64,000 nt of DNA from an uncultured virus (IMG/VR IMGVR_UViG_3300032006_000004). Taxonomy: Duplodnaviria > Heunggongvirae > Uroviricota > Caudoviricetes. The stretch lies in the IMG/VR virus record IMGVR_UViG_3300032006_000004. One strand, written 5' to 3'. Under the pieces are notes generated by a model, which saw only the letters and a program-made list of their open reading frames with translations, searched no databases and was not told the origin of the DNA. Below, in pieces: positions 12,724-63,247 of this stretch. Position 1 is the first letter of the stretch; every line of letters starts with the position of its first letter. Position numbers and translations under genes: made by a program.

Positions 12724-13041
12724 GTGGAAGAGGAATTTGAGGATACTTGGGCCATTTGGATGGCCGAAGAAGGCTTAGAGCTTGAGGATCAAATACATCA
12801 CGAACTCTTAGCTAACCGCCATTTGATGGACATTAATGATGGCACCCATGGAACTTGGGTGGACGGCACCTTAGGTGTGCTCATGGTGTTCGACGATGAC
12901 GAGATCCGAGAATTTCTTGACGCTTGGCAGGATTCACGCAAGGGAAACTTAATGAGTTTGACTTCGATCATGCAATGGTTGGAGCATCTCAGTTCGTTTC
13001 TTCAGGATTGTGTGGATGCTCACGATAACCTGAACGAATAA
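12724..13041 (+). CDS. Acidic hypothetical protein
   Basis: Conserved with 51669..52001 (W..WMAEEGLE, DGTH..WV.G.LGVL). Confidence 0.7.
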   Translation: MEEEFEDTWAIWMAEEGLELEDQIHHELLANRHLMDINDGTHGTWVDGTLGVLMVFDDDEIREFLDAWQDSRKGNLMSLTSIMQWLEHLSSFLQDCVDAHDNLNE

Positions 13042-13636
13042 ACAGGTAGTCCCTCACCACCTCATGCTTGAGTAGCCCTTCTCTTAGTTTCTGAGCGAGT
13101 GAATCTCGCCTACGAGCTAACGTGCTTTTAGGTATATTGAGCACTCGTGACAGGAAGCGTAAGGATAAGCCAACTTCAACAAGACAGTTGTACAACCATT
13201 CTTCGTCTTCACTGAGAGAGTCAAAGACCTCCTGCACAGCAGTGCGGAGGTCTTTGAGTTCTTTGTCTTTTGTTTCCCAATCAGGATGAGGTTCCTCAAA
13301 GGGTTTGGTTTCCATTAAGGCACCCAACTCAGTTTCATGCCATGGAGTAAAAGTTCTACGATTCTGGGGAGCGTGTTCATAAAGAATAGGTGCTCGTAAA
13401 TTTTCTCTTGGAAGCAGATTAGGTGGTGGCTTAAGGGACGGAAGCTTCATTTGCTTCATGGCCTCTATGAACTCAGCCCCACCAACCTCGTCAAAACCTG
13501 TGCCTGCTTTTCTTACGACACCTGTGGTTTTTCTGCGTTCGTTACCAATCCGTCGTCGTCTACCTTCGTCATACGAATATTCTAATTCGTCTTCTTCAAA
13601 AGGATTGTCGTCTTCCCCCTCATCGGGGTCATGCAT
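12989..13636 (-). CDS. Sigma-70 region-4-like HTH protein
   Basis: VFDSLSEDEEWLY...GLSLRFLSRVLNIPKSTLARRRD; no recognisable region 2. Confidence 0.7.
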   Translation of the reverse strand: MHDPDEGEDDNPFEEDELEYSYDEGRRRRIGNERRKTTGVVRKAGTGFDEVGGAEFIEAMKQMKLPSLKPPPNLLPRENLRAPILYEHAPQNRRTFTPWHETELGALMETKPFEEPHPDWETKDKELKDLRTAVQEVFDSLSEDEEWLYNCLVEVGLSLRFLSRVLNIPKSTLARRRDSLAQKLREGLLKHEVVRDYLFIRSGYREHPHNPEETN

Positions 13637-14078
13637 CGTTCCAAGGCAGAAGCTTGGAACTCACACTGAAGTACGCTTTGCCTTCAGGGAACTTCCCTAA
13701 AGGTGCGTCTTCTTTGTTGATAATGTTTACCATGTCTCGATACTTCAGTTCCGCAAAGTTTTCTCTGGTTGAGGACCAGATCCAAAACCATACATCTATT
13801 TCAGATGCATCCCACCACTGTAACGCAGCGATCTTCTCAAGTTTAATCTTTAACGGAGTTTTACCCATACCCATAACTTCGACAAGGCGAACAGGGTTGC
13901 CTTGTAAATAGTCTGGGGTGTATCGAATGTGATGAGGAAGTCGATGCACTTGGAAGTCAGGACGGTTTAAACCGTACCTGACCCAAGCTGTGTTGTTCTT
14001 CTCGAAATGGCTTTCAGCTTCATCACCCATCTGCGTGTAACGCTGTTGGTATGAGCCTTGATGAAAGGGCTGGTTCAT
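13629..14078 (-). CDS. PD-(D/E)xK-fold nuclease-like protein
   Basis: YTPDY...LVEVMG motif. Confidence 0.55.
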   Translation of the reverse strand: MNQPFHQGSYQQRYTQMGDEAESHFEKNNTAWVRYGLNRPDFQVHRLPHHIRYTPDYLQGNPVRLVEVMGMGKTPLKIKLEKIAALQWWDASEIDVWFWIWSSTRENFAELKYRDMVNIINKEDAPLGKFPEGKAYFSVSSKLLPWNDA

Positions 14079-14419
14079 TTCTTTTCCCCGATGATTCGAT
14101 AAATTTGTAAGTCGTCTTCATAAGCCACACCGTTAAGTGCGTCCTCAACAGCTTTCAAATAGTTTGTTGCGTCGCCACGCAACGGACATTTCTCTGCCTC
14201 AAAGGATGTAATCGTTACAACTGTCTCTGTTGCAGTTAATAAGCAGTGCAGTTCAACTGGCCCTTCAAACTTTGGGCCTTTGTAAAGACTCTTTATGTGT
14301 TCTTCTCTTTCCCTAGTGTTCTTAGGTGTATAGGTTCGACCGCTCTTGGTGAAGCGAGGTCGGCCTTTCACTTTGGGTTTCCCAGGAATTGTGAAGGTGT
14401 AAGAGTCAGGTCGTTTCAT
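14075..14419 (-). CDS. rusA: RusA-family Holliday junction resolvase
   Basis: PKVKGRPRF...YTP; D..NYLKAV.DALNGVAY.DD.QI. Confidence 0.9.
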   Translation of the reverse strand: MKRPDSYTFTIPGKPKVKGRPRFTKSGRTYTPKNTREREEHIKSLYKGPKFEGPVELHCLLTATETVVTITSFEAEKCPLRGDATNYLKAVEDALNGVAYEDDLQIYRIIGEKK

Positions 14420-15320
14420 CAGCAGCTTTCTGCACTAGGTTCCGTATCTGAGCTTCTTGATCGTTGCGTTCAGAGAACTTGCCAAGTCTCTGATCTAGTC
14501 GTCGCACCCAATCCACGGTAGCGTCAAATGAATATCCTTGCCACAACAGACTGGAAGCAAAGGCATACATCGTTGCTGATCTGTCTTGTGTGTTGAGGTC
14601 TTCCCATATCTTCTTGGCTGTGCCTTTGAAGCCGTCCTTCGGGGAGAAGTCTTTGGAAGGTTGTTTCAGTTTGGGTTTAGTTGCTTCGTATAGAGGAAGG
14701 AGGGATCTGATTAGCGAGACAGGTGTTCTCTTCTCCCATGCTTGTTCGATGAACTTTGAAACATCCAGCATCCCTTCCCCGTCAGGGTCGAAGACTTCGT
14801 GTCTTCCTTTGTTCCGTTTATCTGGGTAGGGAAGCCGTAAACAGTTACCTATTCTGTTTGGTTCGAGTGAAACCTGTTTGGGGTAAACCTCACGAGTAGG
14901 AACTTGAACTATTCTGCAAGCCCCGATCATGGCGTTGCGCCCTATCGAAGCTGAGATTGGTTCTCTTAGGTATACCCATACGTGGTATCCCTTGCTCTTC
15001 GATGTTTCTTTCCATGCTTGAATGCCCTTGGCTTCCAGCAGGCGAATGAGATTGTCAGCGTGGACGCTGGAAGTTTCTCCTTCGTCTAGGTCTACTGCCA
15101 GCCAGTCCACCAGCCACACTCCGCTTTTCTTCCAAAGTGGGTAAACCCCGAGGGCTGGCCCTTCCCCTGTTAGGTGTTGAGAGATGTGTTCTTCTGTAAC
15201 TGGTGCGTAGTCGCCGCTCTCCTCTAGGAGAGGGGTAACCCCGTTAGATACATTAGCGAGGTGCCCCCCTCCATGAAGAGTGGCGAATCTTTTCTGGTTT
15301 GTTTTAGTTATTCGACCCAT
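14406..15320 (-). CDS. Archaeo-eukaryotic-type (AEP) primase
   Basis: LGVYP, AVDLD, SKSKGYHVW, EVYPKQ, GNCLRLPY motifs. Confidence 0.8.
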   Translation of the reverse strand: MGRITKTNQKRFATLHGGGHLANVSNGVTPLLEESGDYAPVTEEHISQHLTGEGPALGVYPLWKKSGVWLVDWLAVDLDEGETSSVHADNLIRLLEAKGIQAWKETSKSKGYHVWVYLREPISASIGRNAMIGACRIVQVPTREVYPKQVSLEPNRIGNCLRLPYPDKRNKGRHEVFDPDGEGMLDVSKFIEQAWEKRTPVSLIRSLLPLYEATKPKLKQPSKDFSPKDGFKGTAKKIWEDLNTQDRSATMYAFASSLLWQGYSFDATVDWVRRLDQRLGKFSERNDQEAQIRNLVQKAADETT

Positions 15321-16285
15321 CTGTCATCACCTGGAATGTCACTCTCGTAATATTCTCGGACCAGTCCGCATTGGGGGTCCATGAAATAGTCGATGGGTGG
15401 GTTGGTTACATGGCATGGCGGCCTCTTGTTTTTGCAGAGATCTAACGACACTGATACGGAATGAATCCGTCGTTCAACGTCAGATAGTTTCGGATTGTCT
15501 CGTTGACGGAACACATTCAACTGCAGAATTGCGTATTCATCTGCGTTGAATTTGCCGTCGTCCATTCCTCTTGACTGACCCCGAGTGGAACCTTTGCCTG
15601 ACTGATGGATAAGCCCCACTGGAAGATTCTCTGTTTCAGCCCATTCCTTTAACCCTTTAAGAACAGTAGATACTCCTTCGTATCCTGCTGCGCCTGGAAG
15701 TTGTTCAAGGAAATCGACCATGACGAATCTGGGTTTAGCTTGCCAGTAGTCCTCGCATTCACGCATCGCTTCTGACATGTCAGAGAACGATAAAGCGTTT
15801 GGGAATATCTTAATCCTGTTTAAGAACCCATCTTTGGCTTCTCGGATCTCGTTGAGGACAACTTCGTCTTCTGTGCGTAAGGCTTCCTCTACTTCAGCTA
15901 AGTTCCGCTGATATAGCAGGGCATACAACTTAGAGACAACAAGAATTTCTGGTTCATCTGGCGTGTAGATGACACCATGAAAGTCTGGGTCTTCTAAGAG
16001 GTTGCGTGCCATGGACGAGAGGATGACTGCGGACTTGCCGCTGTGTGCTCTGCCTGTGACAACGAGTACGTCGCTAGGCCAAACGCCTCGCATCTTCTGG
16101 TCTATGTCGTTAAGACCTAGATAGAAGCAGTCGTGGCTTCCTTTGGCGTATTCGACCCACCGCTCTACGGCGTCAGAGGTTGGTCTAAAAAATTTGTATT
16201 GGCTCTCTCCCTCGGGGAGATCGTGCCCTTCAAGAAGGGCGTCGATCTCCTCCGTGGTGAGGGCGACTGCTCCGCCCTCCTCCAT
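15308..16285 (-). CDS. DnaB-like (SF4) helicase
   Basis: Walker A GRAHSGKS, Walker B VMVDFLE, LIHQ, KNK. Confidence 0.85.
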   Translation of the reverse strand: MEEGGAVALTTEEIDALLEGHDLPEGESQYKFFRPTSDAVERWVEYAKGSHDCFYLGLNDIDQKMRGVWPSDVLVVTGRAHSGKSAVILSSMARNLLEDPDFHGVIYTPDEPEILVVSKLYALLYQRNLAEVEEALRTEDEVVLNEIREAKDGFLNRIKIFPNALSFSDMSEAMRECEDYWQAKPRFVMVDFLEQLPGAAGYEGVSTVLKGLKEWAETENLPVGLIHQSGKGSTRGQSRGMDDGKFNADEYAILQLNVFRQRDNPKLSDVERRIHSVSVSLDLCKNKRPPCHVTNPPIDYFMDPQCGLVREYYESDIPGDDRWVE

Positions 16286-17043
16286 TAGTTGCCCTTATAG
16301 GCGAACTCTTGGAGTTCTTCTCGTCGGGCGAGCCAGTCCCATTCGATGGCATCGTCTTGGGTTTGTCCAGAAGCTTGGTCCCAGACTTTGAGGGGGACAT
16401 TGCTGTCTCCATCATTTACCCAGATGCCTACGTCACGGGCAACTTGCATTCCCAGACGGGCGAGTGCATCTTTAGACACTGAGAAGTTCGGAAAGTTCTT
16501 CCCTGTCTTCGTTACGTCTGTAGTGCCATCTGCTTTTTCTTTCACTTCGTACACCTTGATTGTGCCGCCGTTCTCGTCGGCCCATTCGTTAGGTTGAAAT
16601 GCCAGAAGGTTGAACGCTGTCTGGTTTTGTTCAGCGTTCTTACCCAAGCAGAAGTCAACTCGCTTGTATACACGCCCAGTCACCCTGCCTCCTGCTGGAG
16701 CAGCTTGCGCTGGTGCAGGAGCGGCAGCTACTGATGTGGCTGTCGGGCCACTCGGAGCGGCCTGCGTGGGGGCGCTTGCTTGACTATCTGAAGACCTGGA
16801 AACGCCGCTTTTCAGGCGACGCATCACAACCCCATCGGGAGACAGATCTATTTCCTGTCCCGATTGGCGAAGGACTTCCGTCTTCACAGTTTCAAACAAG
16901 GCGGTGGCTTCGGCAAGAATGCCTTCGTCACCCATGGACTCAGGGACGCTGCGCTCTATGGAGAGCGTATAGTCCGCTGTTTCATATGGTGCTTCACTTA
17001 CTTTTTGGGTGAAGCTGACTGTTAGCTTTGCTGTATCAGTCAT
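16285..17043 (-). CDS. Replication-module protein (possible SSB/recombination factor) with Ala/Pro linker
   Basis: Between exonuclease and helicase; conserved with 55082..55801. Confidence 0.5.
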   Translation of the reverse strand: MTDTAKLTVSFTQKVSEAPYETADYTLSIERSVPESMGDEGILAEATALFETVKTEVLRQSGQEIDLSPDGVVMRRLKSGVSRSSDSQASAPTQAAPSGPTATSVAAAPAPAQAAPAGGRVTGRVYKRVDFCLGKNAEQNQTAFNLLAFQPNEWADENGGTIKVYEVKEKADGTTDVTKTGKNFPNFSVSKDALARLGMQVARDVGIWVNDGDSNVPLKVWDQASGQTQDDAIEWDWLARREELQEFAYKGN

Positions 17044-17061
17044 ATTTTCCTTTCTCCCTGA

Positions 17062-17829
17062 TTACCAAGGATTCTCTCCGAGGTGTTCGCCTCGGCATTT
17101 GCCTGCCTGCCAGACAGGACACCATTTAGGGGAGCAGTGCCAGCCTCCCCAGTTCATAGGCCATGGTGTTTGGTTCGACATAATCGTCGGCACCATTGAC
17201 CAACACAATTCCGTAAATGCCATCTTATCCTTATCGGTACGCACAATAGGGATCATTTGCACTTTGCCATTTACCAGTACACATAACACGAAGTCTTCTG
17301 TGTCAAACGCCAAACAGTAAGCGTGACTTTGTATGTCCCAACGCTTCTTCTCCCAAGGTTCGTATTCTCGGTTGGGATTCTTCCAATCCCATATGGCTCC
17401 AGAAGCGTCAATCCAGTCAGCGGTACCAGTCAGTATCAAGTTCACGTTGTTTCTTACCCCTAGGGATAACTCAAACGATTTCTCTATGCCAACAGGATTG
17501 AGGTCTGGCATCACTTCTCTGTGCCACACTTCGACGTTCGCTAAAGCAACGTCTACGATTTTCTCGTAGCTGTGTCGCCAGACTTCTATCTTCGGTGCTT
17601 CTTCAGCTATATATGTTTCAGCAATGTCTAATAGTTCATCGACAGTTGGCAACGTGTCTTCGTTCATCATGTGTTCGCCATAGGTTTCTATGGCGTGATG
17701 AACTGCGTTGCCCCTCAGTAGATCTGAGGTTTCTTTTTGGCTTACAAGTTTGAATCGCTCTTGTCTTGCTTGCTCAGGGCATCGCAAGAAGGTGTTGATC
17801 CAACTTTGTCTTAATCTAATTTCAATCAT
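17062..17829 (-). CDS. Cas4/RecB-like PD-(D/E)xK exonuclease with 4-Cys cluster
   Basis: RCP, GNAVH, GTAD, WDWK, QSHAY, C..KWC......C. Confidence 0.85.
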   Translation of the reverse strand: MIEIRLRQSWINTFLRCPEQARQERFKLVSQKETSDLLRGNAVHHAIETYGEHMMNEDTLPTVDELLDIAETYIAEEAPKIEVWRHSYEKIVDVALANVEVWHREVMPDLNPVGIEKSFELSLGVRNNVNLILTGTADWIDASGAIWDWKNPNREYEPWEKKRWDIQSHAYCLAFDTEDFVLCVLVNGKVQMIPIVRTDKDKMAFTELCWSMVPTIMSNQTPWPMNWGGWHCSPKWCPVWQAGKCRGEHLGENPW

Positions 17830-39185: not shown

Positions 39186-39487
39186 TGCCTATTCAGATTC
39201 AATTCCGCCGAGGAACCCATGCCCAGTGGACGGCTGCTGACCCCGTTTTAGCTGACGGCGAAATGGCAATCCAAACTGACGCTGGTGGCGGTCAACCAGC
39301 CATGACCTTAAAGATAGGTGATGGTACTACGGCTTGGAGTTCGCTGGCTTACGGCGGACTTGTAGGCCCGACTGGACCGACAGGTCCTCACGGAACTTCC
39401 GTCAATAACCTTGACGGTGGCGAAGCGGCAACTAACTATGGAGGCATCGGAGCTACGGCTACTGGTGGAAACGCACAAGGAATATAA
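39185..39487 (+). CDS. Mtd_N/collagen tail protein
   Basis: IQFRRGT.AQW..ADPVLA.GE, KIGDG..AW. Confidence 0.8.
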   Translation: MPIQIQFRRGTHAQWTAADPVLADGEMAIQTDAGGGQPAMTLKIGDGTTAWSSLAYGGLVGPTGPTGPHGTSVNNLDGGEAATNYGGIGATATGGNAQGI

Positions 39488-39515
39488 ATGGCTGTACAGA
39501 TACAACTTCGACGAG
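39291..39515 (+). repeat. Near-identical direct repeat, copy 2
   Basis: Offset of 39290 from window start. Confidence 0.95.
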
Positions 39516-39967
39516 ATACCAGCACGAACTGGACCTCTGCTAACCCTACGCTCGCTCTTGGTGAGCTTGGGTTAGAAACTGATGGATACAAATATAAGAT
39601 TGGTGACGGCGCTACTGCGTGGACTTCTTTAAGTTACGCAGAGCTAGCTGGTACCGACATATTCACGATTAACGAGCAGACAGGTACCGCTTACACATTG
39701 GTTGGTGCGGACTCTGGCAAGCTTATTAAGATGACGAACGCTGCGGCGAACACTTTAACGGTGCCGCCAAGTTCAAGCGTCAACTTTGATATTGGAACAA
39801 CAATCAATGTTGTCCAATATGGTGCAGGTCAAACAACTATTGCCGCTGGCGCTGGTGTAACCATCTACTCGTACAACAGTGCGTTATCTATCACAGGTCA
39901 GTACGGTCAAGCTGTTCTTACCAAGTGTGACACTGATCTTTGGATTGCGGCAGGGCTTCTGAGCTAA
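39488..39967 (+). CDS. Mtd_N-domain tail fibre protein (homologue of 198..677)
   Basis: Same length (159 aa), highly similar. Confidence 0.8.
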   Translation: MAVQIQLRRDTSTNWTSANPTLALGELGLETDGYKYKIGDGATAWTSLSYAELAGTDIFTINEQTGTAYTLVGADSGKLIKMTNAAANTLTVPPSSSVNFDIGTTINVVQYGAGQTTIAAGAGVTIYSYNSALSITGQYGQAVLTKCDTDLWIAAGLLS

Positions 39968-40542
39968 TGGCTGGTGTAACGACTGCTTCTAGGGCTAGTT
40001 GGGGGGTTATTGCTTCTTCGGAAGCAATGAACCCATCGAAGATCGGTGGCTATTTGCTGTATGACAACGGCGCATCAGGAAACTTTACTATAAGTAGTAT
40101 TCCTACGACTGATTACCGAGATATTGAAGTGATCTGGTACATGGGGAATCAAAGCACATGGGTAACTAACCACAACTTTGGTTTCAATAGCGACTCTGGC
40201 AATATGATGAGCCAATATTTTTATTGGGGTTGGTCGACAGGTTCTAGCCCTGGCTATCAAGCAAACCAACAGGCATATGTCTATCCTTGTGCGTACTCTA
40301 GCTATGGGTTCACTGGCCGCCTATACATATCCAATTACTCTTCTAATAGCAACACTAAAGCTTTCACTTATGATTGGCATTATGCTATTGGCAGTGCAAC
40401 TAGTTATGCGACAACAGGCACAGGTGCTGGAACGTATCGTTCAACTACCCCAATAACAAGTATACAGTTTAGTCAACCTTACGCCAATGGAAGTAGCAGC
40501 TATCAGGGTTGGTTGATTACTGGAAGGAACCCTAAAGACTAA
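39967..40542 (+). CDS. Putative tail/receptor-binding protein (B cassette gene 1)
   Basis: Only the N-terminal MAG.TTA.R and C-terminal GSSSYQ are shared with 677..1255. Confidence 0.6.
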   Translation: MAGVTTASRASWGVIASSEAMNPSKIGGYLLYDNGASGNFTISSIPTTDYRDIEVIWYMGNQSTWVTNHNFGFNSDSGNMMSQYFYWGWSTGSSPGYQANQQAYVYPCAYSSYGFTGRLYISNYSSNSNTKAFTYDWHYAIGSATSYATTGTGAGTYRSTTPITSIQFSQPYANGSSSYQGWLITGRNPKD

Positions 40543-41237
40543 TGACGCTTACACAATCCTTCCATAGGCTCGCTCATGTTGAAACTGCTGATTCGACTAG
40601 CCAGTACATAGAGCTTTCAGGTCTGAGTACGAACTACGCTCAGTTGTATTTCACATTTACGGGTTATCTTGACTGGTCAGGCACTAACTATGGTGCTGGT
40701 CAGCGTACTTGGAATGGGCCTACGCTTCAATTCCAAGGAGCGTGGCCTGGGGGAGCAAACGCTAGTGCAGCTTCATACAGGTGCTACGGGGTCATAGGTA
40801 AAGATTCGACTAACTCAACGTATTCATATCTTGGTGACATGATTAATAGTTCGAGTTATACGGTTAGCCCAAACTGGGCGAACATGGGTAACTTGTTTTA
40901 TCCGAGTGGCACGTTTTATGCAGACAGAAACCGTTTCACCATTGAAATGTGGGTTCTGCAACCAAGAGATAACCAAGTCAAGACTGTGATGTGGTACGGC
41001 GGTCAAGGCCCACCTGATACGGGAAGCTACAATGGTACGCCGTTAATGCAAGGGGCCGCTCACTTGTGTGGACAGACTTCTACGTCTGCCCCTACAGCGA
41101 TGGGACCGTTTGACAGTATCCGCATAGGTGCTGGTTGTGACACTGCTGGTGGCGCTCAAAAATTTGGAACTTTGTCTAGTTTCACTGCTTATGGCATGGG
41201 GAACTCATCTACCGTGAATACGGGAAATGCGGGATAA
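40542..41237 (+). CDS. Putative tail/receptor-binding protein (B cassette gene 2)
   Basis: Shares the short GAW.GG.NASA and F.SIR motifs with 1258..1917. Confidence 0.6.
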   Translation: MTLTQSFHRLAHVETADSTSQYIELSGLSTNYAQLYFTFTGYLDWSGTNYGAGQRTWNGPTLQFQGAWPGGANASAASYRCYGVIGKDSTNSTYSYLGDMINSSSYTVSPNWANMGNLFYPSGTFYADRNRFTIEMWVLQPRDNQVKTVMWYGGQGPPDTGSYNGTPLMQGAAHLCGQTSTSAPTAMGPFDSIRIGAGCDTAGGAQKFGTLSSFTAYGMGNSSTVNTGNAG

Positions 41238-41239
41238 AC

Positions 41240-41962
41240 ATGGCACAACAAAACATGGCCTTAATCGGGCATCAACAAATCAACAGTTGGTCAACAAGTT
41301 TTGGCATAAGCAACTTGACTAGTGTCCAAATTTTTAATGATGAGGGGCAACATGTCGCTAATACAAGTTACGGTGATTTTCCTGGGTACAGGATTGTGGG
41401 GAAACTGTATTTTGACACAACAGTCTCACAGTTTTCGGGATCTCACATAAACTTTTATGCGTATTCAACTGGCAACTATGACCAATACGCCACGTACAGC
41501 ACTGCAAGTAGCACAACCTATTCAAATACGATACAGCAAACTGGTACCTATGGGGGTGGCAACGGCTACTCCTATATCCAGATTGGCGAAGGGATGTACC
41601 CGTCAAAGTACAACGGTAGTGGTCAATACAACTGGGGAAGTGACGTTACCGACGTAGACGGGAACACGGTTGCTTCAGATTCGCCACGGCGTGGTGTTTG
41701 GACCAACTTTGTTATCGACGCTTACTACCAAAACACTAACAAAATGCCTTCCTTTAAGATAAAAACGGCTGCCGCTACAAACGGGTTCTCCACTTCGACT
41801 ACTGATACCTCTGAACAGTATTCAGGGCGCTACTACAACGGTGGCGGCGGTTCAAACAACTATTACAACTTAGACGGTATTTATATAACAACTGGGTATC
41901 AGTGTCGAGGTGAATGGTTCTGCTATCGCATGGGTAGGGAAAACTGGGTTGGAGGAAGCTAG
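41240..41962 (+). CDS. Putative tail/receptor-binding protein (B cassette gene 3)
   Basis: Tyr/Ser/Gly/Thr-rich; positional equivalent of 1920..2576. Confidence 0.6.
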   Translation: MAQQNMALIGHQQINSWSTSFGISNLTSVQIFNDEGQHVANTSYGDFPGYRIVGKLYFDTTVSQFSGSHINFYAYSTGNYDQYATYSTASSTTYSNTIQQTGTYGGGNGYSYIQIGEGMYPSKYNGSGQYNWGSDVTDVDGNTVASDSPRRGVWTNFVIDAYYQNTNKMPSFKIKTAAATNGFSTSTTDTSEQYSGRYYNGGGGSNNYYNLDGIYITTGYQCRGEWFCYRMGRENWVGGS

Positions 41963-41970
41963 GAGCGAAT

Positions 41971-42219
41971 ATGCCAACTATTACTATTTATGATTGCGCG
42001 ACAGGTGAAACAACTGTTCGCGAAATGACAGAAGAAGAAAATGCTATTCGCATTGAGGCGGAGCATAACGCTGAAGAAGAAATGAAAGCCAGAGAGAAAG
42101 AACGAGTAGACGCCCAAAATGGTCGTCAAAAACTTCTTGATCTTGGGTTAAGCGAAGATGAGGTTACGGCTCTTGTGGGGCCTGCGCCTGTTGCGCCAGA
42201 GCCAGCACCAGCGGTATGA
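41971..42219 (+). CDS. Small tail-fibre-associated protein
   Basis: TGE.T.REMT.EE, KL..LGLS.DE. Confidence 0.6.
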   Translation: MPTITIYDCATGETTVREMTEEENAIRIEAEHNAEEEMKAREKERVDAQNGRQKLLDLGLSEDEVTALVGPAPVAPEPAPAV

Positions 42220-42374
42220 GCGCTGACGTAGGTATCGAAGAAGTTATTGCTTCTTTGAGTGAGCGTGGGAAGCTGGAATGGGAAATTGCTTTGATGCGAG
42301 TTCACATTGCCCAGCTTGAAGCGGCTCAATGTTCGTGTGACTGCGATAAATGTGGGACGGAAAGTACTGAATAG
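42216..42374 (+). CDS. Conserved 52-aa CSCDCDKC protein (not in ORF track)
   Basis: Homologue of 2813..2968. Confidence 0.8.
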   Translation: MSADVGIEEVIASLSERGKLEWEIALMRVHIAQLEAAQCSCDCDKCGTESTE

Positions 42375-42386
42375 TAGGAGGCCACG

Positions 42387-43490
42387 GTGGGAATTAGACT
42401 TGTTGATCCGCATATAGCTAATAGAACGAGGGCTCGCAAGAACCGTAATCTTTCTAATTCATCTTATACTGTTCCTAACCTTGATGGTCGTACTGGGGTT
42501 ATGGGTGCGACTAAGCGTGGGGCTAATGTTGTTGATGCTGGGGAGCGTGATGCTCCCAAGTTCCCGCCTGCGTTTACAGGCAAAGGTGCCAATAGTAGTG
42601 CTGCTTTGGGTAGTCTTGAGGGTTTGACGGGCCAGTATGGTGGGAATACTGGTTCCGCTTCTCGACGTGCAGAGAATAAGGCTGCGATAGCTCAGTTGAT
42701 TGCTGATAATAAAGCAAAGAATGCTTTGGGTGACCATATGCGCCAGAATCCCTGGGCATATGGCGATAAGTATCGCACAAGTTCTACCCCTGGTTTAGAT
42801 GCTGCTATAGATTTTGGTGTCGCTCAGCGTACTCCTACTAGTCTTGGGCAGGGTGGCCCTTCGATGACTGATTTGGAGTCTTACGCTTTCGATAACCCTG
42901 TTGCTACTGGTAGTGCTACTAGCGACACTGGTGGCGACGACACCACTGGGGGTAGTGTCTTAGACGCCATAGAAGCCGACTTGATGTCTGGTGGGCGCCA
43001 GTTCGGTGATATGAGAACTTTGCAGAATGCGTTAGTGCAGCTTCGTGGTTCTTTGAATGCGAATGAGTTGCAGCGTTCTCGCAGATTAGAAGATTTTGCT
43101 TTGATGATTGATAGATATCGACGCCAAGCGGATCGTATGCGTCGCCAGATTCCTGGTGGTTTTAATCGTCGCGGGATGTTAAATAGCGGCCAGTTTGATC
43201 GCGGTATGGGCGAGTTCGAGAGTCAAGTTATTCGTGACGAGTTAGAACAGCGTCATAAGTTACAACGTGCGCTGCAGGATCTTGGCTTCTCTGATCGTGC
43301 TGCAGGGCATACTTTCGATGAGACTATCCGTGAGAATGCCATTTCTGATGCTTTAGCTTCAGCAGCGAAAGCATCTGCTATCTCTATTCCTGGGCTAGAC
43401 GGTGGCTTTACACCTGTGGGTGACAACATGATGAATAAATATGGGGATGCTTATATGAACTCTTTAATTCAAAGCATGTTTAAGGATTAG
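42387..43490 (+). CDS. Putative internal virion protein 1
   Basis: GGAGG RBS; positional homologue of 2983..3663. Confidence 0.5.
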   Translation: MGIRLVDPHIANRTRARKNRNLSNSSYTVPNLDGRTGVMGATKRGANVVDAGERDAPKFPPAFTGKGANSSAALGSLEGLTGQYGGNTGSASRRAENKAAIAQLIADNKAKNALGDHMRQNPWAYGDKYRTSSTPGLDAAIDFGVAQRTPTSLGQGGPSMTDLESYAFDNPVATGSATSDTGGDDTTGGSVLDAIEADLMSGGRQFGDMRTLQNALVQLRGSLNANELQRSRRLEDFALMIDRYRRQADRMRRQIPGGFNRRGMLNSGQFDRGMGEFESQVIRDELEQRHKLQRALQDLGFSDRAAGHTFDETIRENAISDALASAAKASAISIPGLDGGFTPVGDNMMNKYGDAYMNSLIQSMFKD

Positions 43491-43498
43491 GGACTGAT

Positions 43499-44866
43499 AT
43501 GAGTAACGGACAACCAAAAACTATTCCAGATTCAGCTTTATCGCCAGAAGAACAAAAAGAGCTTGCTGCTTTTAGAGAACTAACAGGCAATACTGATCCG
43601 TTGTCTTTGAAAGGCACACTAGGTTTTAATGACGGGGGCGGTGCCGTAGGCAATCTTTGGTCTGATCTAGGTGATGGTTTGCAAGGGCTAATGGATGCCC
43701 CGCAAGCGGCTTTAGATGATTTAGACCAATTTTTGTTTGGGGATTACCCAGAACGAACTGGTCCTCCTAGGGGGCCGCATGGTCCTGGGAGAGATGAGTT
43801 AGCTAAAGCTGAGCAGAATCTAAGGATACAAGGATACAAAGAAGGCGCTGATGGCCCGTTTATGGGTCCTTGGGGCTCAGGGCAATTCAAGTCTGGGCAT
43901 GGTTCTAGCACTGCGGTTAATCCCGAATGGCAAGAACCAGGTTTCTATTTATCTGAGGATAATGTTCGGGGTCGTTTTGATGATTTGCTTGCTCTTTACG
44001 ATCAGTTACATAGTTCTGATTCAGAAGCAGCAAAAAGTTATTTTGACACAATCCAGGCTTACATAGGGGATTCTGGTACTCGGGGCGCTAACCAAATTCA
44101 ATCCGACACTGATGTTATCAATCGTCAACTTGACGATATGTGGGAAAATAGTTTTGGAGTCGATGGCCGAGAAGCTAAGAATGATCTCCGATTTGAGGCA
44201 GAGTTTCAAAATGCTATACAAGGCATGGAAGATACCCAGGAAGCTGCAGATGCTCGTTTAGGAACTTGGGGTATTGATCCGCAACGGTGGACTGCTGGTG
44301 CTGGGGCCGAAACTGCTGCGTTGTTGACTTCGCAGGCAATGAATGGTGCTCGTTTCGCTAATGAAATGGGTGCCATTATGAAAATGGCTCACGGGATGGC
44401 TAATGCTCGCGTGAATCAAGGTATGGCCGCCGAGGCTCGTAATCTTGCTAACACGGTTTCTCAATTAGGGTTACAAGCGCAGCTTCAGTACAAGTCAAAT
44501 ATTCAGCAAATTGATCGAGAGTTGCTGATGAATAAGATTGGTGTTGAGCAAGCAAGTATGGCTTTGAATGCTGCGGAAGAAGCAGCTTTGGATAAAAGTT
44601 TGGCTGCTATGCAGGCTTACCAAATTTTGGGAGCGATGACAAATACTTCTTCAAAGCAGTGGATGGCTGCGGACCAAGTTGGGATTACAGATGACTTGTT
44701 TGCGCGGACACCTTTGATTCCGTCTTTGCCTGACACTGATCGGCCTTTGGGTGCCACAGCTATTCATCCAGAAGGATTCGAATATCCTTTCCCAGTTAGT
44801 TATAAGGATATAGGGGAACTAAATCAAATTATTGAAACTTATTTGCAGATGGACAGAAACGCCTAG
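43499..44866 (+). CDS. Putative internal virion protein 2
   Basis: Shares GI.P..F/T...ET.ALL with 3663..4922. Confidence 0.5.
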   Translation: MSNGQPKTIPDSALSPEEQKELAAFRELTGNTDPLSLKGTLGFNDGGGAVGNLWSDLGDGLQGLMDAPQAALDDLDQFLFGDYPERTGPPRGPHGPGRDELAKAEQNLRIQGYKEGADGPFMGPWGSGQFKSGHGSSTAVNPEWQEPGFYLSEDNVRGRFDDLLALYDQLHSSDSEAAKSYFDTIQAYIGDSGTRGANQIQSDTDVINRQLDDMWENSFGVDGREAKNDLRFEAEFQNAIQGMEDTQEAADARLGTWGIDPQRWTAGAGAETAALLTSQAMNGARFANEMGAIMKMAHGMANARVNQGMAAEARNLANTVSQLGLQAQLQYKSNIQQIDRELLMNKIGVEQASMALNAAEEAALDKSLAAMQAYQILGAMTNTSSKQWMAADQVGITDDLFARTPLIPSLPDTDRPLGATAIHPEGFEYPFPVSYKDIGELNQIIETYLQMDRNA

Positions 44867-44872
44867 GAAGCT

Positions 44873-47800
44873 ATGGCCGACAGAAAAGATATATTGGCCG
44901 CACTTAAATCTGCGCCTGGTTTAGATCTATCTCCTGATTCTGGGCATATAGATTTAAGTCCAGATACTCCTATGTTGGGAACGCATGATCCCACTAATCC
45001 GTGGGGTCTAGAATTAAATCTGCCAACCCCTCGCCCTGTTGGGGGCGATGGGTTTTTGGGTCCCCTTGGTCAAGTTATTGACATTATAGATACGCCTAGA
45101 GCCGCAATTATGTCTACTGTCAAAGAGGTTACGGACCTTGTGCAGGGTGAAGGTTTTTCTGGGAAAGACTGGTGGAACCAAACTTCTGATAATTATATGT
45201 TTGGTGACCTTTTGCAAGATGAAGGCTGGGGGACTGGCACTGGCTGGGATATAGCTCTTGGTTTGCCTATCGACATTTTGTTGGATCCTGTTACTTATGC
45301 TTTGTCTCCTTTGAAGGCTGCAGGGATGCTTGCCCGTGGCACGATTGGGGCCAAGGGTGTTGCTGTAAAGATGCAGAATGTAGCGAAGGCTTCAAGCAAA
45401 GCTGCTTATGCTGCAGATAAAGCTGGAGATGCGGCGGGTGCTGCGAAACATGCTGCTAAAGCGGATGAATATAATGCTGCTGCCGCTGCTGTTGTGAAAA
45501 ATAATGCTATTCAAGCTGCTCCTAAAAAGATTCTTGAAGAGATGGGCTTTGATGTAGCAAAGGGTATGACGTTTAGTGTGCCTTTGACAGGTCGTGTTGG
45601 ACGTAAAGTCGTTGAACGTCCTTTGGATCGAGTGTTGGGTGGTTTGCTTTCTAAGGTTTTAGATCCGAGGCGGATCAAGCAGCTTCCTAAGTTTATGATT
45701 GATGATGCAGGTTTCGATCTTTGGAGCAATACTGCTAAGGCGCAGAAGAATCGTGACCTTGTTCAGAAAGCTATGTATCGTCTTAAGCGGGGCGAAAACA
45801 TAGACAATCTGGCAGATGCGGCAACCATGAAGAGTGTTCGCCAAGCCGCAAAGATGGCTAATCAAATGGCTGTTGATGTCCCTGGGGTTCTTATTCCTGG
45901 GACTTATGGTTTAGCTACTAAGGTTGCTTTGGGCCCTGGCAGGTTGTGGGGAACCGCTATGGTTCGTACTCCTTTCATGGACGATATGCACAAAGCTTTT
46001 GCTTCTGGTGAAAGCGGTGCTGTAAAACGCATGATGCGTGGTACGGGTTTGCGAGCTAAAAATCTTACAGATGAGGACAGGCTTGTTGGTCTGGCTATGT
46101 GGGATAATTTGCAAACAGCTTTAACTGCTGAAAGAACTTTTGGTGTTCAGTTTGGTGAACGGGTTGCTGGTTTACGTCAAACGATAGACGAGATTAATGA
46201 AAGTCTTGTTGCTGCTGGTAGAGATGAGATCACCCCTGAGGATATGATGCGTTGGGGCCAGATCGACGATGCTGCCAATATGACTCCTGAGGCACGTCGA
46301 TTAGCTGGGCTTGAAGAGGTATTTGGTCCAGGGCAAGGTGAAGTTCTTCCTTCTAAGTGGGAAGCGCAAATTAAGATTAAAGAATTTTGGGAAGGTGTCA
46401 GGAAAGATTTCAATGCGGCTTTAGCCCGAGAAGGCGAAGAGGGTTTTGGAAGCATCGATGAAATGCTTGACGATTTCTATGTTGCCCGTTTCATAGATTT
46501 AGAAACGGAAATAGGAAAAAAGATTGTAGACAAAGGACGCTGGACTCCGCCTGCAGATGCACGACATACTCAAGGTTTGCGAGGTAGTCCAACTAAGTTG
46601 CGTGAGTATAAGCCAGGAGAAACTTTCTTAGGGAAGCTTTTGGTTTCACCTGCTGAGCATCCGCAAGGTTTAAGCATTGTGGATCAGATGCGAGTTATTG
46701 GTAAAGATGTCGTGGGTCCAGAGTTCAGGTCCATGTACTCTGAACAATTTTGGGATGTGGCTGATCGTTACGGGAAGGTAATGAAGTCACGGGCTCGCCA
46801 TCAACGCTGGATTAATGAGCTAGAAAATTCTGCAATTCTTCAAAGAGGAACGATGCAGGCGGATGGCATTGCTTTTAAGTATGACACCGATGTCGTTAAT
46901 CAATTAGAAGATCTAATTAAGGCCATCAATAAAGAACGCGGAAAATTTCAAAAAGATATTCTTAGTTCTAATGAGGATATAGAGAAGCTTCGAGAGACTG
47001 CTGTTGCTTCTTTAGATCAGGTAGATGAGGTTTCTCAAGCTGCTGGGGCTGTCCTTGTACGCTTGAATAACCAGTTGACTGATGTCCAAACTGTTCTTAA
47101 CGAGTTTGAAGAAATAGCTGGTGTAGCTGGATTTAGCCCTAAAGCTAAACAGTATCTATTGGATCTTCTTGACGGCAAAATGGCGACAAGAAGCTCCAAG
47201 GAAGCTGCTTTAGAAGCTGAAATTCTTGAAGAGATTGTTGAGTTTATTGAGCCTTTAGCCCAGAAGCTTGCAAAGTTGCGCCAAGCGCAGAATCAGTTGC
47301 AAGAAACTATTGGGATGGCCCACAGGGAAGGCGTCCAAGTTGGTGCTACTCCTCGGAATGTTGCTTGGGATGACATGCTTGAAGTCCCAACTAAAGACCG
47401 TGGATATGCTACTGATCTTCAGAATTTCTTAACAAAGCTAGACGCTGAGATTACAGACTTAGAAAAGTTCATGCGTTATGTCACTGGGAATTTACATACC
47501 AGTGCTTTGGCCGATGAGACTGTCGAAATGATGGAAACATTAGTCAAGTTAAGTGATGATATTAAGGATCCAAAATTTCCATTAGTTATTAGCGGAGAAA
47601 CTGCAGCAGAAGGGGTACTTCGTCCTAAGAGGAGACTTTCCCCTGAGCGTATGCGTCAGCTTCGTCAGCCTCGTGGGACTGCGGAACCGCAGTTAGTTCA
47701 ACGTCGCGAGGGAGGAAAATTTGCTGAAGGAAAAGAGATTAAATCTCGTGCTGCTTACAATTATGAAGAAACTATCGAGTCTCCTAATTTTCAAAAAATA

Positions 47801-50521
47801 ACTATTGAGCAATTCACTGAAATGGATTTGCCTTCTACGATTGTTGTTGAGCAGGTTTACACTTCGACGGGAGAAAAGATTGTTTGGCAGGTTGAGCATT
47901 CTGGTAGAACATTTGATTCTCGTACAGCGGCGATGGATCATGTTTATGAGGAACTTGGATATTTCAAAGTTCCTCGTGTCTTTCGGAATGAGAAGGGCCA
48001 GATTGTAAGCCAGACTTCGAAAGAGAATGGTCATTGGGTTCGTAAGATTTCTGTTCCGAAAGAGTCACCTATCCGCAAAACGAAGAAGGGCAATACTTGG
48101 GCTGATCTTTTTGAGCGGATGGGGAATTTATCTAATGAGTTAAATGCTGAACAGATTTTGGTAACTAATCAGTTAGATGATGTTGTTGAGCGTGTAGCCA
48201 ATTTAAGGAATAGTCTTGAAGCTTCTCCAGTGATGATGGGGCTTAATGAAGATTTGGCTCGCTTGGATGCTTATATCAATACCACTCAGGGAACTCGGCA
48301 ATGGTTTATTCAATTAGCTAACCGTGGTCGTCCCAATAAATACGGTTGGTCGGGTACAGGTCGGCCAAAGGGTGCTGAAGGTAAGAGCGATTATTGGTTG
48401 GGGAAACAGCGAGGCATGTCTGATGAAGATATTGCCCATAGGTACCAAACTAGGGCTCAACCTAGAACTAAAGGTGGTAAACCAGAACCTGCCCGTAAGG
48501 GCGCTAAGGTTGCGCCAGGTGAGACTGCTGCTGCTCGTTGGGTGAGTGGAGTTGTTGAAGGCGATTTGAATGATGCCCATAGACAATTCGATATAGATCG
48601 ACTTCGGTATTACGCCGATGAAGGGATAGAACCTCCTGATCTTTATGTTGGTGCGAGACAAGAGCATGAAGATCTTCTAAAGGTCAAGAATCAAATTAAT
48701 GAGCAAATTGCCATTCAGCAGAATCTTATTGATGAGGCTGTCCAGAAAGCTAAAGTTGCCGAACAAGCTGCTTATCAAGCTCGGGCTAACCAAGCTGACG
48801 ATATCCAGAATTATGCTTTGCATAAAGCTGAAGCAGATGCTCGCAAACTTCAGCTTGAAGCTGAGGTTGCTAGCTTAAGAGAATCTGGTTCTATTGTAGA
48901 TTTCTTTAGGTCTGCCCCTACTCCAGATGAAGCAATTCTGAGGGTGCTTGCTGATCGAGGGCTCTACAGCAAAGCTTTAGATGCTTATGGCGAAGCTCAG
49001 TCTAATTTCTTGCTTTCTTATCGGGGGATGCAACAAACTTTAACTCCTGGTGGTCAGTCTTACGTTGCTGGCGGTTTAAGCGAAACTGGTTTTCAAATGT
49101 TTGAAGAAGCTCTCATGGCTGGGGCTAAGCTTCACGACTTTGACGAAGTTGGAAAGTTCCTTAAGGGATATAGGCAACTTGCGAACTGGTGGAAATCACA
49201 AGCCGTGACCACGCCAGGTTTCATTATCCGCAACCTTATGGGCGGTATGTGGATTAACTCGATGGTCGCTGGAGTTGAGTTTGGGACCCACAGCAAAGTA
49301 ATAGGCATGACTAAAGCTGCGGCTTCAGCAGGCAACGGGGATGTTCTTGCAGGTATGCGTCAGCTAGCTGCTTCTGACGGTCCTGTCCGTTTAGAAGGTA
49401 TTTCTGGACTGGGTGGTGCTCGCAAAGCAGGCGCAGAAGATTTTAGAGATTTGCTAGAACTAATGGAAAGCGGTTCTGTCGGATCTGGTCAATCATGGTC
49501 TGAAATTATCACCAATGTTGATCAGGCCGCTGTGTTGCGACCGTACCAAAGAAGGCAAGGCAAATTGGGTGGCGCCCAAAGCGGTTTGGGGGCAGGCTGG
49601 ACAGAAGGCACATGGAAGCCTTGGTCTGCTGATTTCAAAATGTCTAGAGCTATCCGTTCACAGAACGAGCGTGCAGAGTTTGTTTTGCGTGCCTCTGTAG
49701 GTATGGATACTCTTGCCAAAGGTGGAGATGTTGCTTCCGCTTACAGAAATATCACCAAGTATCATTTTGATTACGGAGATATCACAAATGTGGAGCGGCG
49801 AATCAAAGATGTGATTCCTTTCTACACTTGGCAAAAAAATGTTATTCCTGTGTTGTTGGAGTCAATGGGACGTAAACCTCAGTCTTGGGGACGTTTGCTT
49901 CAAGTCAAGAAAGAACTTGAGCTTCATTCTCCTCAGCAGGGATTAGTTCCTGATTATTTTGGTGAGAATATGGGAATCAGGTTGCCATTTAAGATTCCTG
50001 GGATCAAGGGCGGGCGTGTGTACGCTCTTCCAGATCTTCCTTTCAGGGATTTCCAAAGGTATTTGAAAGAACCAACTTCTCCTATTCGGGGACCTTTGGA
50101 GTCTGCATTTCCTTGGGTCAAGTTACCTGCCGAAATGTGGGCGACTAAGCAGACTTTCGCTGATATTCCTTTCATGGAAAGGTATCAGCAAGTTCCTTCT
50201 TGGGGTAAAATTCCTGGTCTAATGCCAATATTAGGTGGTTTGGGTAAAGCCAAGAAAGCTAAAGACGGTACGTGGGTTATGAAAGATAACGATATTTATG
50301 CTGTTGATCAGTTCGTTCCTTTCTTTGGTCGTATGCGTAGAATGTTGCCTAATGAAGAGGCTAAGCAGCGTCGCCTTATGACAACTTGGGTGTCTACTAT
50401 TTTCGGTGGCGGTTTTAGGGTTAATGATCCGTTTGAAAAGCGTTCGCAATTTATTCGGGATCAGAAGAAATTTGCGAACGATATGCGTGACATCCTAGAT
50501 ATTGAAACAAGGCGAGTCTGA
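44873..50521 (+). CDS. Large internal virion/ejection protein (1882 aa)
   Basis: N- and C-terminal regions homologous to 4926..11585. Confidence 0.65.
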   Translation: MADRKDILAALKSAPGLDLSPDSGHIDLSPDTPMLGTHDPTNPWGLELNLPTPRPVGGDGFLGPLGQVIDIIDTPRAAIMSTVKEVTDLVQGEGFSGKDWWNQTSDNYMFGDLLQDEGWGTGTGWDIALGLPIDILLDPVTYALSPLKAAGMLARGTIGAKGVAVKMQNVAKASSKAAYAADKAGDAAGAAKHAAKADEYNAAAAAVVKNNAIQAAPKKILEEMGFDVAKGMTFSVPLTGRVGRKVVERPLDRVLGGLLSKVLDPRRIKQLPKFMIDDAGFDLWSNTAKAQKNRDLVQKAMYRLKRGENIDNLADAATMKSVRQAAKMANQMAVDVPGVLIPGTYGLATKVALGPGRLWGTAMVRTPFMDDMHKAFASGESGAVKRMMRGTGLRAKNLTDEDRLVGLAMWDNLQTALTAERTFGVQFGERVAGLRQTIDEINESLVAAGRDEITPEDMMRWGQIDDAANMTPEARRLAGLEEVFGPGQGEVLPSKWEAQIKIKEFWEGVRKDFNAALAREGEEGFGSIDEMLDDFYVARFIDLETEIGKKIVDKGRWTPPADARHTQGLRGSPTKLREYKPGETFLGKLLVSPAEHPQGLSIVDQMRVIGKDVVGPEFRSMYSEQFWDVADRYGKVMKSRARHQRWINELENSAILQRGTMQADGIAFKYDTDVVNQLEDLIKAINKERGKFQKDILSSNEDIEKLRETAVASLDQVDEVSQAAGAVLVRLNNQLTDVQTVLNEFEEIAGVAGFSPKAKQYLLDLLDGKMATRSSKEAALEAEILEEIVEFIEPLAQKLAKLRQAQNQLQETIGMAHREGVQVGATPRNVAWDDMLEVPTKDRGYATDLQNFLTKLDAEITDLEKFMRYVTGNLHTSALADETVEMMETLVKLSDDIKDPKFPLVISGETAAEGVLRPKRRLSPERMRQLRQPRGTAEPQLVQRREGGKFAEGKEIKSRAAYNYEETIESPNFQKITIEQFTEMDLPSTIVVEQVYTSTGEKIVWQVEHSGRTFDSRTAAMDHVYEELGYFKVPRVFRNEKGQIVSQTSKENGHWVRKISVPKESPIRKTKKGNTWADLFERMGNLSNELNAEQILVTNQLDDVVERVANLRNSLEASPVMMGLNEDLARLDAYINTTQGTRQWFIQLANRGRPNKYGWSGTGRPKGAEGKSDYWLGKQRGMSDEDIAHRYQTRAQPRTKGGKPEPARKGAKVAPGETAAARWVSGVVEGDLNDAHRQFDIDRLRYYADEGIEPPDLYVGARQEHEDLLKVKNQINEQIAIQQNLIDEAVQKAKVAEQAAYQARANQADDIQNYALHKAEADARKLQLEAEVASLRESGSIVDFFRSAPTPDEAILRVLADRGLYSKALDAYGEAQSNFLLSYRGMQQTLTPGGQSYVAGGLSETGFQMFEEALMAGAKLHDFDEVGKFLKGYRQLANWWKSQAVTTPGFIIRNLMGGMWINSMVAGVEFGTHSKVIGMTKAAASAGNGDVLAGMRQLAASDGPVRLEGISGLGGARKAGAEDFRDLLELMESGSVGSGQSWSEIITNVDQAAVLRPYQRRQGKLGGAQSGLGAGWTEGTWKPWSADFKMSRAIRSQNERAEFVLRASVGMDTLAKGGDVASAYRNITKYHFDYGDITNVERRIKDVIPFYTWQKNVIPVLLESMGRKPQSWGRLLQVKKELELHSPQQGLVPDYFGENMGIRLPFKIPGIKGGRVYALPDLPFRDFQRYLKEPTSPIRGPLESAFPWVKLPAEMWATKQTFADIPFMERYQQVPSWGKIPGLMPILGGLGKAKKAKDGTWVMKDNDIYAVDQFVPFFGRMRRMLPNEEAKQRRLMTTWVSTIFGGGFRVNDPFEKRSQFIRDQKKFANDMRDILDIETRRV

Positions 50522-50522
50522 T

Positions 50523-51290: not shown

Positions 51291-51329
51291 GTGGGCCAAA
51301 GTTGCTCTATTATAGGAAGTGAGGTAGCA

Positions 51330-51476
51330 ATGCCTAAAGAAAGTAAACAGTGGAAGGATTCTTCTTCTGTCGATAACGCTGAGGCGATGGGAATGAAAGC
51401 TAAAGAAGCAGCTTCGTTTCTGCGTTCCACAGCACTAGGTAACCAACATTCGGGCGGTCGCCCGTTCGGGAAGTGA
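51330..51476 (+). CDS. Small conserved protein
   Basis: Homologue of 12394..12522. Confidence 0.7.
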   Translation: MPKESKQWKDSSSVDNAEAMGMKAKEAASFLRSTALGNQHSGGRPFGK

Positions 51477-51477
51477 A

Positions 51478-57220: not shown

Positions 57221-57244
57221 GCACCCACTTATTTTTGAGCGCGG

Positions 57245-63224: not shown

Positions 63225-63247
63225 GCTAGCTGCAGAGAGGGTAACAG

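Follow-up and report, generated by a model that had tools for sequence, protein, structure and literature searches.

The described recoding system that comes closest to the gene considered here is dnaX of Escherichia coli. Our gene, which we call gene A, lies together with a homologue, gene B, in a 64,000-nucleotide stretch of DNA from an uncultured tailed phage (IMG/VR record IMGVR_UViG_3300032006_000004; "the window" below means this whole stretch). The comparisons presented here suggest that A, B and their relatives are very probably dual-coding, and that a conserved +1 frame is entered by +1 ribosomal frameshifting to give a product made of the N-terminal domain (N-domain) plus a tail, a reading to which we assign a probability of roughly 0.75. 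In dnaX, as set out in the available part of the 2016 recoding review (PMC5009743), tau and gamma have a common N-terminal part, the shifted product ends soon and without the C-terminal domain(s), and tRNA-Lys slips on an A-run in a replication-related gene; in each respect the arrangement proposed for gene A is alike. Unlike gene A, dnaX uses a -1 shift on A_AAA_AAG with Shine-Dalgarno and stem-loop stimulators and adds a residue or so. Gene A would use a +1 shift, has no stimulator that we found and carries in the new frame a conserved 20-residue core under selection, and there is no sequence relationship between the two.

Tailed phages are also known to make second products by +1 shifting, as do the cps (capsid) and tsh (tail) genes of Listeria phage PSA according to the accessible portion of the same review (PMC5009743). 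PSA shifts at a CCC proline codon beside a stop codon or pseudoknot to make a longer structural protein, whereas the proposed gene A site is AAA_AGY in a non-structural gene and the shifted product would be shorter. For prfB (RF2) and yeast Ty1/Ty3, the accessible passages of PMC5009743 and PMC10885494 describe slippage in the P site, or decoding out of frame, during a wait at the A site, much as we propose; the slow A-site codon of Ty3 is AGU (GCG_AGU_U), and the A-site codon in the gene A family is AGC/AGU. Some gene A clades further resemble prfB in having GGAGG or GAGG 3-6 nucleotides (nt) upstream, an element absent from the window's two copies, but unlike prfB the gene A site places no stop codon in the A site, and the phage's own genes do not use AGC rarely. 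Gene A also resembles overprinted viral genes, in which two frames of one stretch are selected, the older frame here being a disordered, compositionally simple segment; however, overprinted genes initiate independently, whereas the +1 frame of gene A lacks a start and continues a conserved 0-frame segment. The literature searched as full text, including the available parts of PMC5009743 and PMC10885494, held no report of the gene A family or its frameshift, which is not proof of absence.

The two genes and their parts, all on the minus strand, are as follows (ORF, open reading frame; aa, amino acids; AF2, AlphaFold2).

16285..17043, minus strand: gene A, 0-frame ORF of 252 aa, comprising N-domain, disordered Ala/Pro/Ser linker and C-terminal domain (C-domain), from the ORF call and AF2 model.
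55082..55801, minus strand: gene B, homologue of A, 239 aa counted from the ATG at 55801, 71% identical to A.
16810..17043, minus strand: N-terminal module, residues 1-78, common to both predicted products, delimited by 0-frame selection and ending in the conserved G-V-V-M-R-R-L-K.
16288..16689, minus strand: C-domain, residues 119-252, predicted in the unshifted product only (AF2 of the domain alone).
16807..16815, minus strand: proposed +1 shift site of A, CTG AAA AGC (A-run 16809..16812), where the +1 frame reads TGA directly 5' of AAA.
55565..55573, minus strand: proposed shift site of B, CTG AAA AGC, in the same 24-nt context as in A.
16728..16808, minus strand: +1-frame extension of A, 26 codons after Lys (AAFPGLQIVKQAPPRRPLRVARQPHQ), then TAG at 16730..16728.
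55459..55566, minus strand: +1-frame extension of B, 35 codons (AAFPGLTVISPPHLRKPLRVALQYDRKLLPHQAEK), then TAA at 55461..55459.

An earlier note on this DNA had claimed that the linker of gene A hides a conserved +1-frame peptide, and a recount from the Lys78 codon bears it out. In the annotated frame, A and B share 8/24 residues, with 0 codon differences synonymous and 16 non-synonymous; in the +1 frame they share 14/24, with 7 synonymous and 10 non-synonymous, and all seven of the synonymous +1 codon pairs that the note listed are present. Over the 75 nt from Lys78, the differences between A and B fall 14/6/8 on 0-frame codon positions 1/2/3, while the corresponding counts for the 77 codons of the N-domain are 7/7/37. 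As the note had also said, the surroundings of the site are the same in both phages, and the 24-nt string there occurs exactly twice in the window (16795-16818 and 55553-55576, both minus strand), where the chance expectation is none. Both copies have TGA immediately 5' of AAA in the +1 frame and no ATG, GTG or TTG at the start of the +1 ORF, again in line with the note.

To go beyond one pair of genes, viral contigs were scanned for stretches that encode relatives; 94 were found and the best 80 of these (L001-L080, 55-100% identity) were used. Apart from L074 and L078, which failed the motif and were treated separately, the 80 genes extracted are the window's own two (winA, winB) and 78 loci, representing 62 distinct nucleotide sequences that we call clade I. 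In all 62, the +1 frame runs open for 26-46 codons past the Lys codon, with the peptide consensus [AV][AVLM][FW]P[GDNK]L.[VIL][VIM]..AP.R[RK].., and the replacements in it are conservative (I/V/L, R/K, F/W). Parsimony changes, counted on a tree from the flanking domains, number 189/125/456 at 0-frame positions 1/2/3 in the 150 nt of N-domain before Lys and 159/74/80 in nt +12 to +68 after the Lys codon, so that the wobble moves to 0-frame position 1, which is position 3 of the +1 frame (chi-square 105, p=1.3e-23, from sequences related by descent, so that the changes counted do not represent independent events). The switch of phase is also seen in column entropies. The ratio of non-synonymous to synonymous differences (pN/pS) changes in the same way, from 0.34 in frame 0, 1.36 in +1 and 1.89 in +2 within the N-domain to 1.00, 0.54 and 1.40, respectively, in the overlap. 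More homologues and a per-frame substitution test, which were among the checks that the earlier note had proposed, have thus come out in favor of its reading, and these data place the first ~20 codons of the +1 extension under +1-phase purifying selection.

An overlapping antisense ORF was considered as the cause of this pattern and rejected. When 25 codons are considered, frame 0 is open in 62/62 sequences, +1 in 62/62 and +2 in 1/62, compared with 28, 27 and 35 of 62 for the three antisense frames. In A, moreover, TCA gives TGA and so closes the antisense frame with the same wobble as +1; an antisense gene therefore cannot be the cause.

Downstream, selection returns to the annotated frame, at a short motif in the otherwise variable linker:

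16717..16749, minus strand: 0-frame linker motif G-P-T-A-x-S-V-A-A-x-P, residues 99-109, with the +1 stop inside it; found in 52/62 clade-I sequences.

Written as G-P-T-A-x-S-[VM]-A-A-x-P to cover all 52 carriers, this motif varies almost solely at the 0-frame wobble, indicating that 0-frame selection resumes there, and in 40 of the 52 the +1 stop falls inside it at offset 19. Along the gene, then, selection runs from frame 0 (N-domain) through ~20 codons of +1 to frame 0 again (linker motif) and on into the C-domain. Frame 0 is open into the C-domain in every clade although linker indels are many, and because it has been kept open through these indels, the long product would also be made, with both products under selection. 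The GPTA-type motif is absent from copy B and the close relatives of B; it has the look of a docking motif in the long isoform.

An exhaustive HMMER search yielded 25 representative clusters only, and the DNA of further clades was then retrieved. Every clade with the M-R-x-L end of the N-domain keeps the +1 peptide, roughly as K-A-A-F-P-x-L-x-V-V-..-P-P-R-R, including clades in which the N-domain is only 35-41% identical and some with a different C-terminal domain. The 0-frame codons at the site and the +1 peptides of these groups are listed here.

L074: TTG GAA AAA AGC; +1 peptide KKAFGKVLLIKAGPPQHRPRV..
L081-84: TTG GAA ACA GGC; +1 peptide KQAFGPLQFLRNPPPQQRPVVARR..
L097-L100 and L103-L107: CGA AAA AGC; +1 peptide EKAFPLLQALQLVPLRQ..
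L096/L102: CTT AAG GCG GGC; +1 peptide RRAFPNLEVIKAAPPHRPLVV..
L108: TCC AAA AGC; +1 peptide PKAFPGLRVVRRPPRRRRLV..
L109-111: CTG AAA AGC AGC; +1 peptide KAAFPNLLVVRRPQHQRRLL..

The +1 peptide of L074-L087 follows the pattern K[KQ][AV]FG.., and L096, L102 and L108-111 have a quite different C-terminal domain of the F[FY]DNR...KHK type. Among 15 representatives (105 pairs), mean identity is 52% in the N-domain and, over the 22 residues after Val81, 35% in +1 as compared with 24.5% in frame 0. When only the 52 pairs that share less than 50% of the N-domain are taken, identity averages 38.6% (N-domain), 23.1% (frame-0 22-mer) and 33.7% (+1 22-mer), and the +1 22-mer is the more similar of the two in 42 of these 52. 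By this comparison, the hidden +1 peptide is conserved about as well as the domain that precedes it. Proteins P0024, P0027 and P0028 also have the F[FY]DNR...AP.FKHK-type C-domain. In marine phages, the C-terminal domain thus appears to be swapped downstream of the frameshift cassette, the +1 tail being seen at the DNA level for L096, L102 and L108-L111.

More distant relatives lack the frame change (P0029, P0030, P0033, P0034, L101 and GenBank MW202803.1, annotated 'hypothetical protein'), and in the two for which there is DNA, L101 and MW202803.1, the +1 frame is closed at or near the site position. Three of five such relatives have an in-frame Phe-[Pro/Gly] in the same register (P0034 TKAFPGTV, P0033 EKFGKV, L101 KNFGRV), and in a BLASTP alignment the AFPG of P0034 falls ungapped into register. 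When P0029, P0030, P0033, P0034 and the L101 ORF were searched with a profile built from 51 tails, nothing was found at E<=10, and we offer it as a lead only that the tail may be homologous to these in-frame segments. Proteins with N-domain and tail already in one frame did not emerge from a word search with the trans-frame product P0001 over 57-182 aa, which returned 12 matches, all covering at most 78% of the query and hence the N-domain only, or from a 'longer' search with residues 60-104, which returned one match at 47% cover. Two candidates for such a natural form were set aside: P0023 differs by a one-base linker indel from loci of the normal two-frame layout, and P0021 looks the same, judged from the protein only. 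Scanning viral contigs with P0034 as query gave nothing useful, P0027 gave one spurious locus, and a scan of genome contigs returned an alignment too divergent to use.

Where the +1 frame is entered can be narrowed down from its 5' end. No clade has ATG, GTG or TTG at the head of the +1 ORF, and nothing there amounts to a start codon of its own with a ribosome-binding site. Of 71 distinct 240-nt regions, 34 have a +1 stop (TGA in 33, TAA in 1) at a distance of 3 codons ahead of the conserved Phe/Trp, which in these 34 confines entry to AAA-AGY-GGC. The Val codon and the next base covary between clades, GTT being followed by T or C to give Phe and GTG by G to give Trp, which means that the +1 frame keeps its aromatic residue. 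The 0-frame GVVMRRLK runs directly into the +1 AAFP.L as one conserved block, and AAA AGC GGC GTT is nearly invariant at every position. Among 72 distinct regions, the site is AAA_A in 63 (a count that includes L087, GAA AAA AGC), AAA_G in 4 (L058, L065, L085, L086), GAA_A in 3 (L081, L084, L095), CAA_A in 1 (L078) and CTT AAG GCG in 1 (L096/L102). The A-run is A4 in most sequences, A5 in the L097 type and A6 in L074 and L087. Four identical bases are one of the two forward-shift motifs of PRFect in the part of its description available (PMC10885494), and the accessible text of the recoding review (PMC5009743) describes tRNA-Lys as prone to shifting and, for the Ty3 site, names AGU as the A-site codon that is slow. 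For copies A and B themselves, we consider slippage of tRNA-Lys at AAA_A in particular to have a somewhat better than even chance of being the route, and on the sequence evidence the +1 frame is under purifying selection, frame 0 selection resumes downstream and entry by a start codon is excluded.

Under this model, ribosomes would translate the N-terminal module to Lys78 (AAA, 16812..16810). Most would stay in frame 0 and go on into the disordered Ala/Pro/Ser linker with its GPTAxSVAA motif and then the C-domain, while a fraction would slip one base forward, most likely by re-pairing of peptidyl-tRNA-Lys from AAA to the overlapping AAA of AAA_A with AGY in the A site. Shifted ribosomes would read GCG GCG TTT CCA... 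and add the conserved Pro/Arg-rich tail, predicted to be of 26 residues in A, 35 in B and 26-48 across the family, and basic. The resulting isoform would be of ~11.5 kDa, without linker and C-domain. We infer ribosomal entry, entry at AAA_A and a set ratio of the two isoforms, which would be a logic like that of dnaX tau/gamma. The earlier note's conclusion that one gene makes two products with a common N-terminal ~78 aa is supported by the phase switch, the deep conservation of the peptide, the exclusion of antisense ORFs and the lack of a start in the +1 frame.

Several points weigh against this reading. Five of the 72 regions are without AAA_A or AAA_G, reading GAA ACA GGC (L081, L084, L095), CAA ACA AGC (L078) or CTT AAG GCG (L096/L102), and still keep the +1 peptide; in those lineages the shift may work differently or the slip site may be at another position, unless such a site is simply not a universal feature. 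In the 34 long ORFs of the window, in-frame AAA_A occurs 63 times and AAA_AGY 10 times, and since both are common elsewhere, the site alone cannot be a strong signal. AGC is also not rare in the window ORFs, at 9.3 per 1000 codons compared with 13.4 for GCG. Nor was a stimulator found. The weak hairpin that the earlier note had mentioned is not supported as a signal: a 7-bp stem encloses the site in A, but the z-scores are -1.1 (A) and +0.5 (B) and the 5' arm is not conserved. RNAalifold on 33 homologues, from -30 to +100, gave 0 consensus pairs, and no Rfam family matches. The Shine-Dalgarno-like sequence upstream (AGG or GGAGG) is limited to some clades, with the window copies reading CGT CGC, and a phage tRNA for four-base decoding was dismissed for a window that carries no tRNA genes. 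Openness of the +1 frame was discarded as evidence, 67% of codon-shuffled linkers staying open for at least 22 codons. The shared ancestry of the sequences, noted above, tempers the substitution counts, and the trans-frame product is a prediction from sequence comparison.

These weaknesses bear differently on the alternatives. The same shuffles, and the near invariance of AAA AGC GGC GTT at all positions, would also fit a +1 frame that is untranslated and whose conservation is due to a nucleic-acid element or to chance. We regard this as highly improbable, in view of the three-base period at the +1 wobble, the conservative replacements, a pN/pS of 0.54, the peptide rather than the nucleotides being kept across clades saturated at the DNA level, and the want of any consensus RNA structure, Rfam match or open antisense frame. 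If the frame is translated, it could still be an independent small overlapping gene (~26-48 aa) with non-canonical initiation of its own and unjoined to the N-domain: +1-phase selection shows that a frame is translated and not how it is entered, and several clades lack a perfect slip site. No ATG, GTG or TTG stands at or near the 5' end in any clade and no conserved Shine-Dalgarno was seen, however, the ORF opens just 3 codons before Phe/Trp in 34/71 distinct sequences, and GVVMRRLK and AAFP.L form one block across the two frames, which makes a separate gene very unlikely.

Two further routes would keep the junction and change the way in which it is made. Polymerase slippage on the A-run, dropping one A or adding two, would put the tail in frame in a minority mRNA; the site is indeed an A-run (mostly A4, also A5 and A6), and transcriptional slippage is the dnaX route in Thermus in the part of the review at hand (PMC5009743). 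We give RNA-level entry as little credence as a separate gene, since the runs are short and are interrupted or absent in 5/72 distinct regions. Four marine RNA libraries contain contigs for portions of the gene (stretches without cover in runs X16-X18 carry no information), and one contig (X15 record 2, 16753-17100) spans the A-run with 0 gaps; this faintly suggests that the locus is present in RNA preparations with the major RNA form unedited, although contigs drop rare variants and DNA carry-over is possible. Alternatively, a +1 shift at Lys followed by a return to frame 0 before the +1 stop would yield a single protein with N-domain, tail segment, linker and C-domain. Three of the five distant relatives without a frame change do have Phe-[Pro/Gly] in frame, with linker and C-domain following in that same frame, but no second conserved shift site turned up, the spacing between core and +1 stop is variable (tails of 26-48 codons), the tail profile misses the in-frame segments (none at E<=10), and this least economical model is also the one we hold least probable. 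We therefore retain a single +1 ribosomal shift as the preferred reading.

In the AF2 model of gene A (46 sequences), a beta-hairpin (4-34) and a helix (35-60) are followed by residues 65-122 at a predicted local distance difference test score (pLDDT) below 50, and by the C-domain at ~90; folded alone (39 sequences), the C-domain reaches pLDDT 89.4 with a predicted template modeling score (pTM) of 0.84. GVVMRRLK is strongly conserved yet predicted to be disordered in the 0-frame protein, and its conservation would be easier to understand if it formed one element with the +1 continuation AAFP.L..V. Met74 in this segment (ATG, 16822..16824, minus strand) is invariant in the 62 clade-I genes, with entropy 0 at its 3 positions, is kept in deeper clades and sits in the disordered stretch of the model. 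An internal start for a C-domain-only product was considered and rejected, the codon before [ST]G[RK].. being ATG in 20, GTA/ATA/ATC in 24 and other in 5 of the 49 sequences matched, and hence not conserved.

Structure searches gave no function. Foldseek returned nothing with E below 1 for the whole model and nothing below E 2.5 for the C-domain, for which the best VIA-align score among 48,161 chains was Z 2.1 and the only match in BFVD was an unnamed 225-aa viral protein (67% identical); the C-domain, as modeled, may be an undescribed fold. Contig L011 carries a GAA to TAA nonsense change in this domain (2011-2013), at the Glu after ..K-V-Y, and P0002 (165 aa), a near-identical copy of gene A in the protein database that is unrelated to L011, ends at the same residue, making a premature C-domain end common to two lineages. 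Rad52/Red-beta/Sak-type annealing proteins were considered for the N-domain on account of the adjacent exonuclease. Their scores of Z 3.5-3.6 (Z 3.6 to 7ujl_A with root mean square deviation 4.2 and 58 residues aligned, Z 3.6 to 8g3g_J, Z 3.5 to 8pq8_A) are within noise, with 860 chains at Z>=2 and a top score of Z 5.0 for unrelated lipoproteins. Neither a PDB profile search nor the ESM Atlas returned anything of use for the gene A protein. The family has no above-chance match in Pfam, PHROG or NCBIfam, tblastn against GenBank phage records found no match to the gene A protein, and relatives carry the annotation 'hypothetical protein' only.

Gene A is bordered by genes of DNA metabolism, all on the minus strand.

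17062..17829, minus strand: PD-(D/E)XK exonuclease, upstream neighbor of gene A (Pfam PF12705, E=3e-13; PHROG exonuclease).
15308..16285, minus strand: DnaB-like helicase, downstream neighbor, whose start overlaps the gene A stop (Pfam PF03796, E=1e-8; PHROG 243).
14406..15320, minus strand: primase-polymerase of the archaeo-eukaryotic primase (AEP) type (Pfam PF22548, E=5e-18).

Two related tailed-phage genomes or parts of genomes, collinear for the most part, lie in the window (1..~39000 and ~39400..64000). In each, the plus strand encodes structural genes and the minus strand a replication module (A at 12989..17829, B at 53208..57082), and portal, major head, terminase and tail-fibre genes are present. 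Gene order around B is the same as around A, and the order exonuclease, gene A, DnaB-like helicase, primase-polymerase suggests that the gene A isoforms act in DNA replication or recombination. Next to gene B, ~500 nt separate the exonuclease gene from the ATG (55802..56314, minus strand), the equivalent gap in A being 18 nt, and frame 0 is open upstream of this ATG from a TTG at 55954.

A broader proposal, which we put forward tentatively and regard as doubtful, is that the conserved unit is the N-domain plus the +1 tail (GVVMRRLK-AAFP.L..V..PP.RR, continuous), reached by a shift without stop codon, rare codon or RNA structure, and that it serves as a domain switch that sets the ratio of a small basic isoform to isoforms with interchangeable C-domains in widespread ocean phages. 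Either the conserved nascent peptide M-R-R-L-K or tRNAs with xm5s2U34 might promote such a shift, the latter idea arising because every clade except one has AAA, GAA or CAA as its P-site codon, with A as the next base.

In conclusion, gene A sits at the center of the replication module in phages that occur in many marine metagenomes, and its family is without assignment in the databases searched. Should the frameshift prove real, one protein is overlooked by gene callers in every genome of this phage group, and the conserved tail would be a handle for finding the protein's partner. The family would add a case of +1 recoding in a non-structural phage gene, at a sense-codon site without obvious stimulator, for which the natural site variants AAA_A, AAA_G, GAA_A, CAA_A and CTT_A are a built-in mutational series. 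It may prove to be a new member of programmed +1 frameshifting, and the site variants and missing stimulator may make more of it than that.

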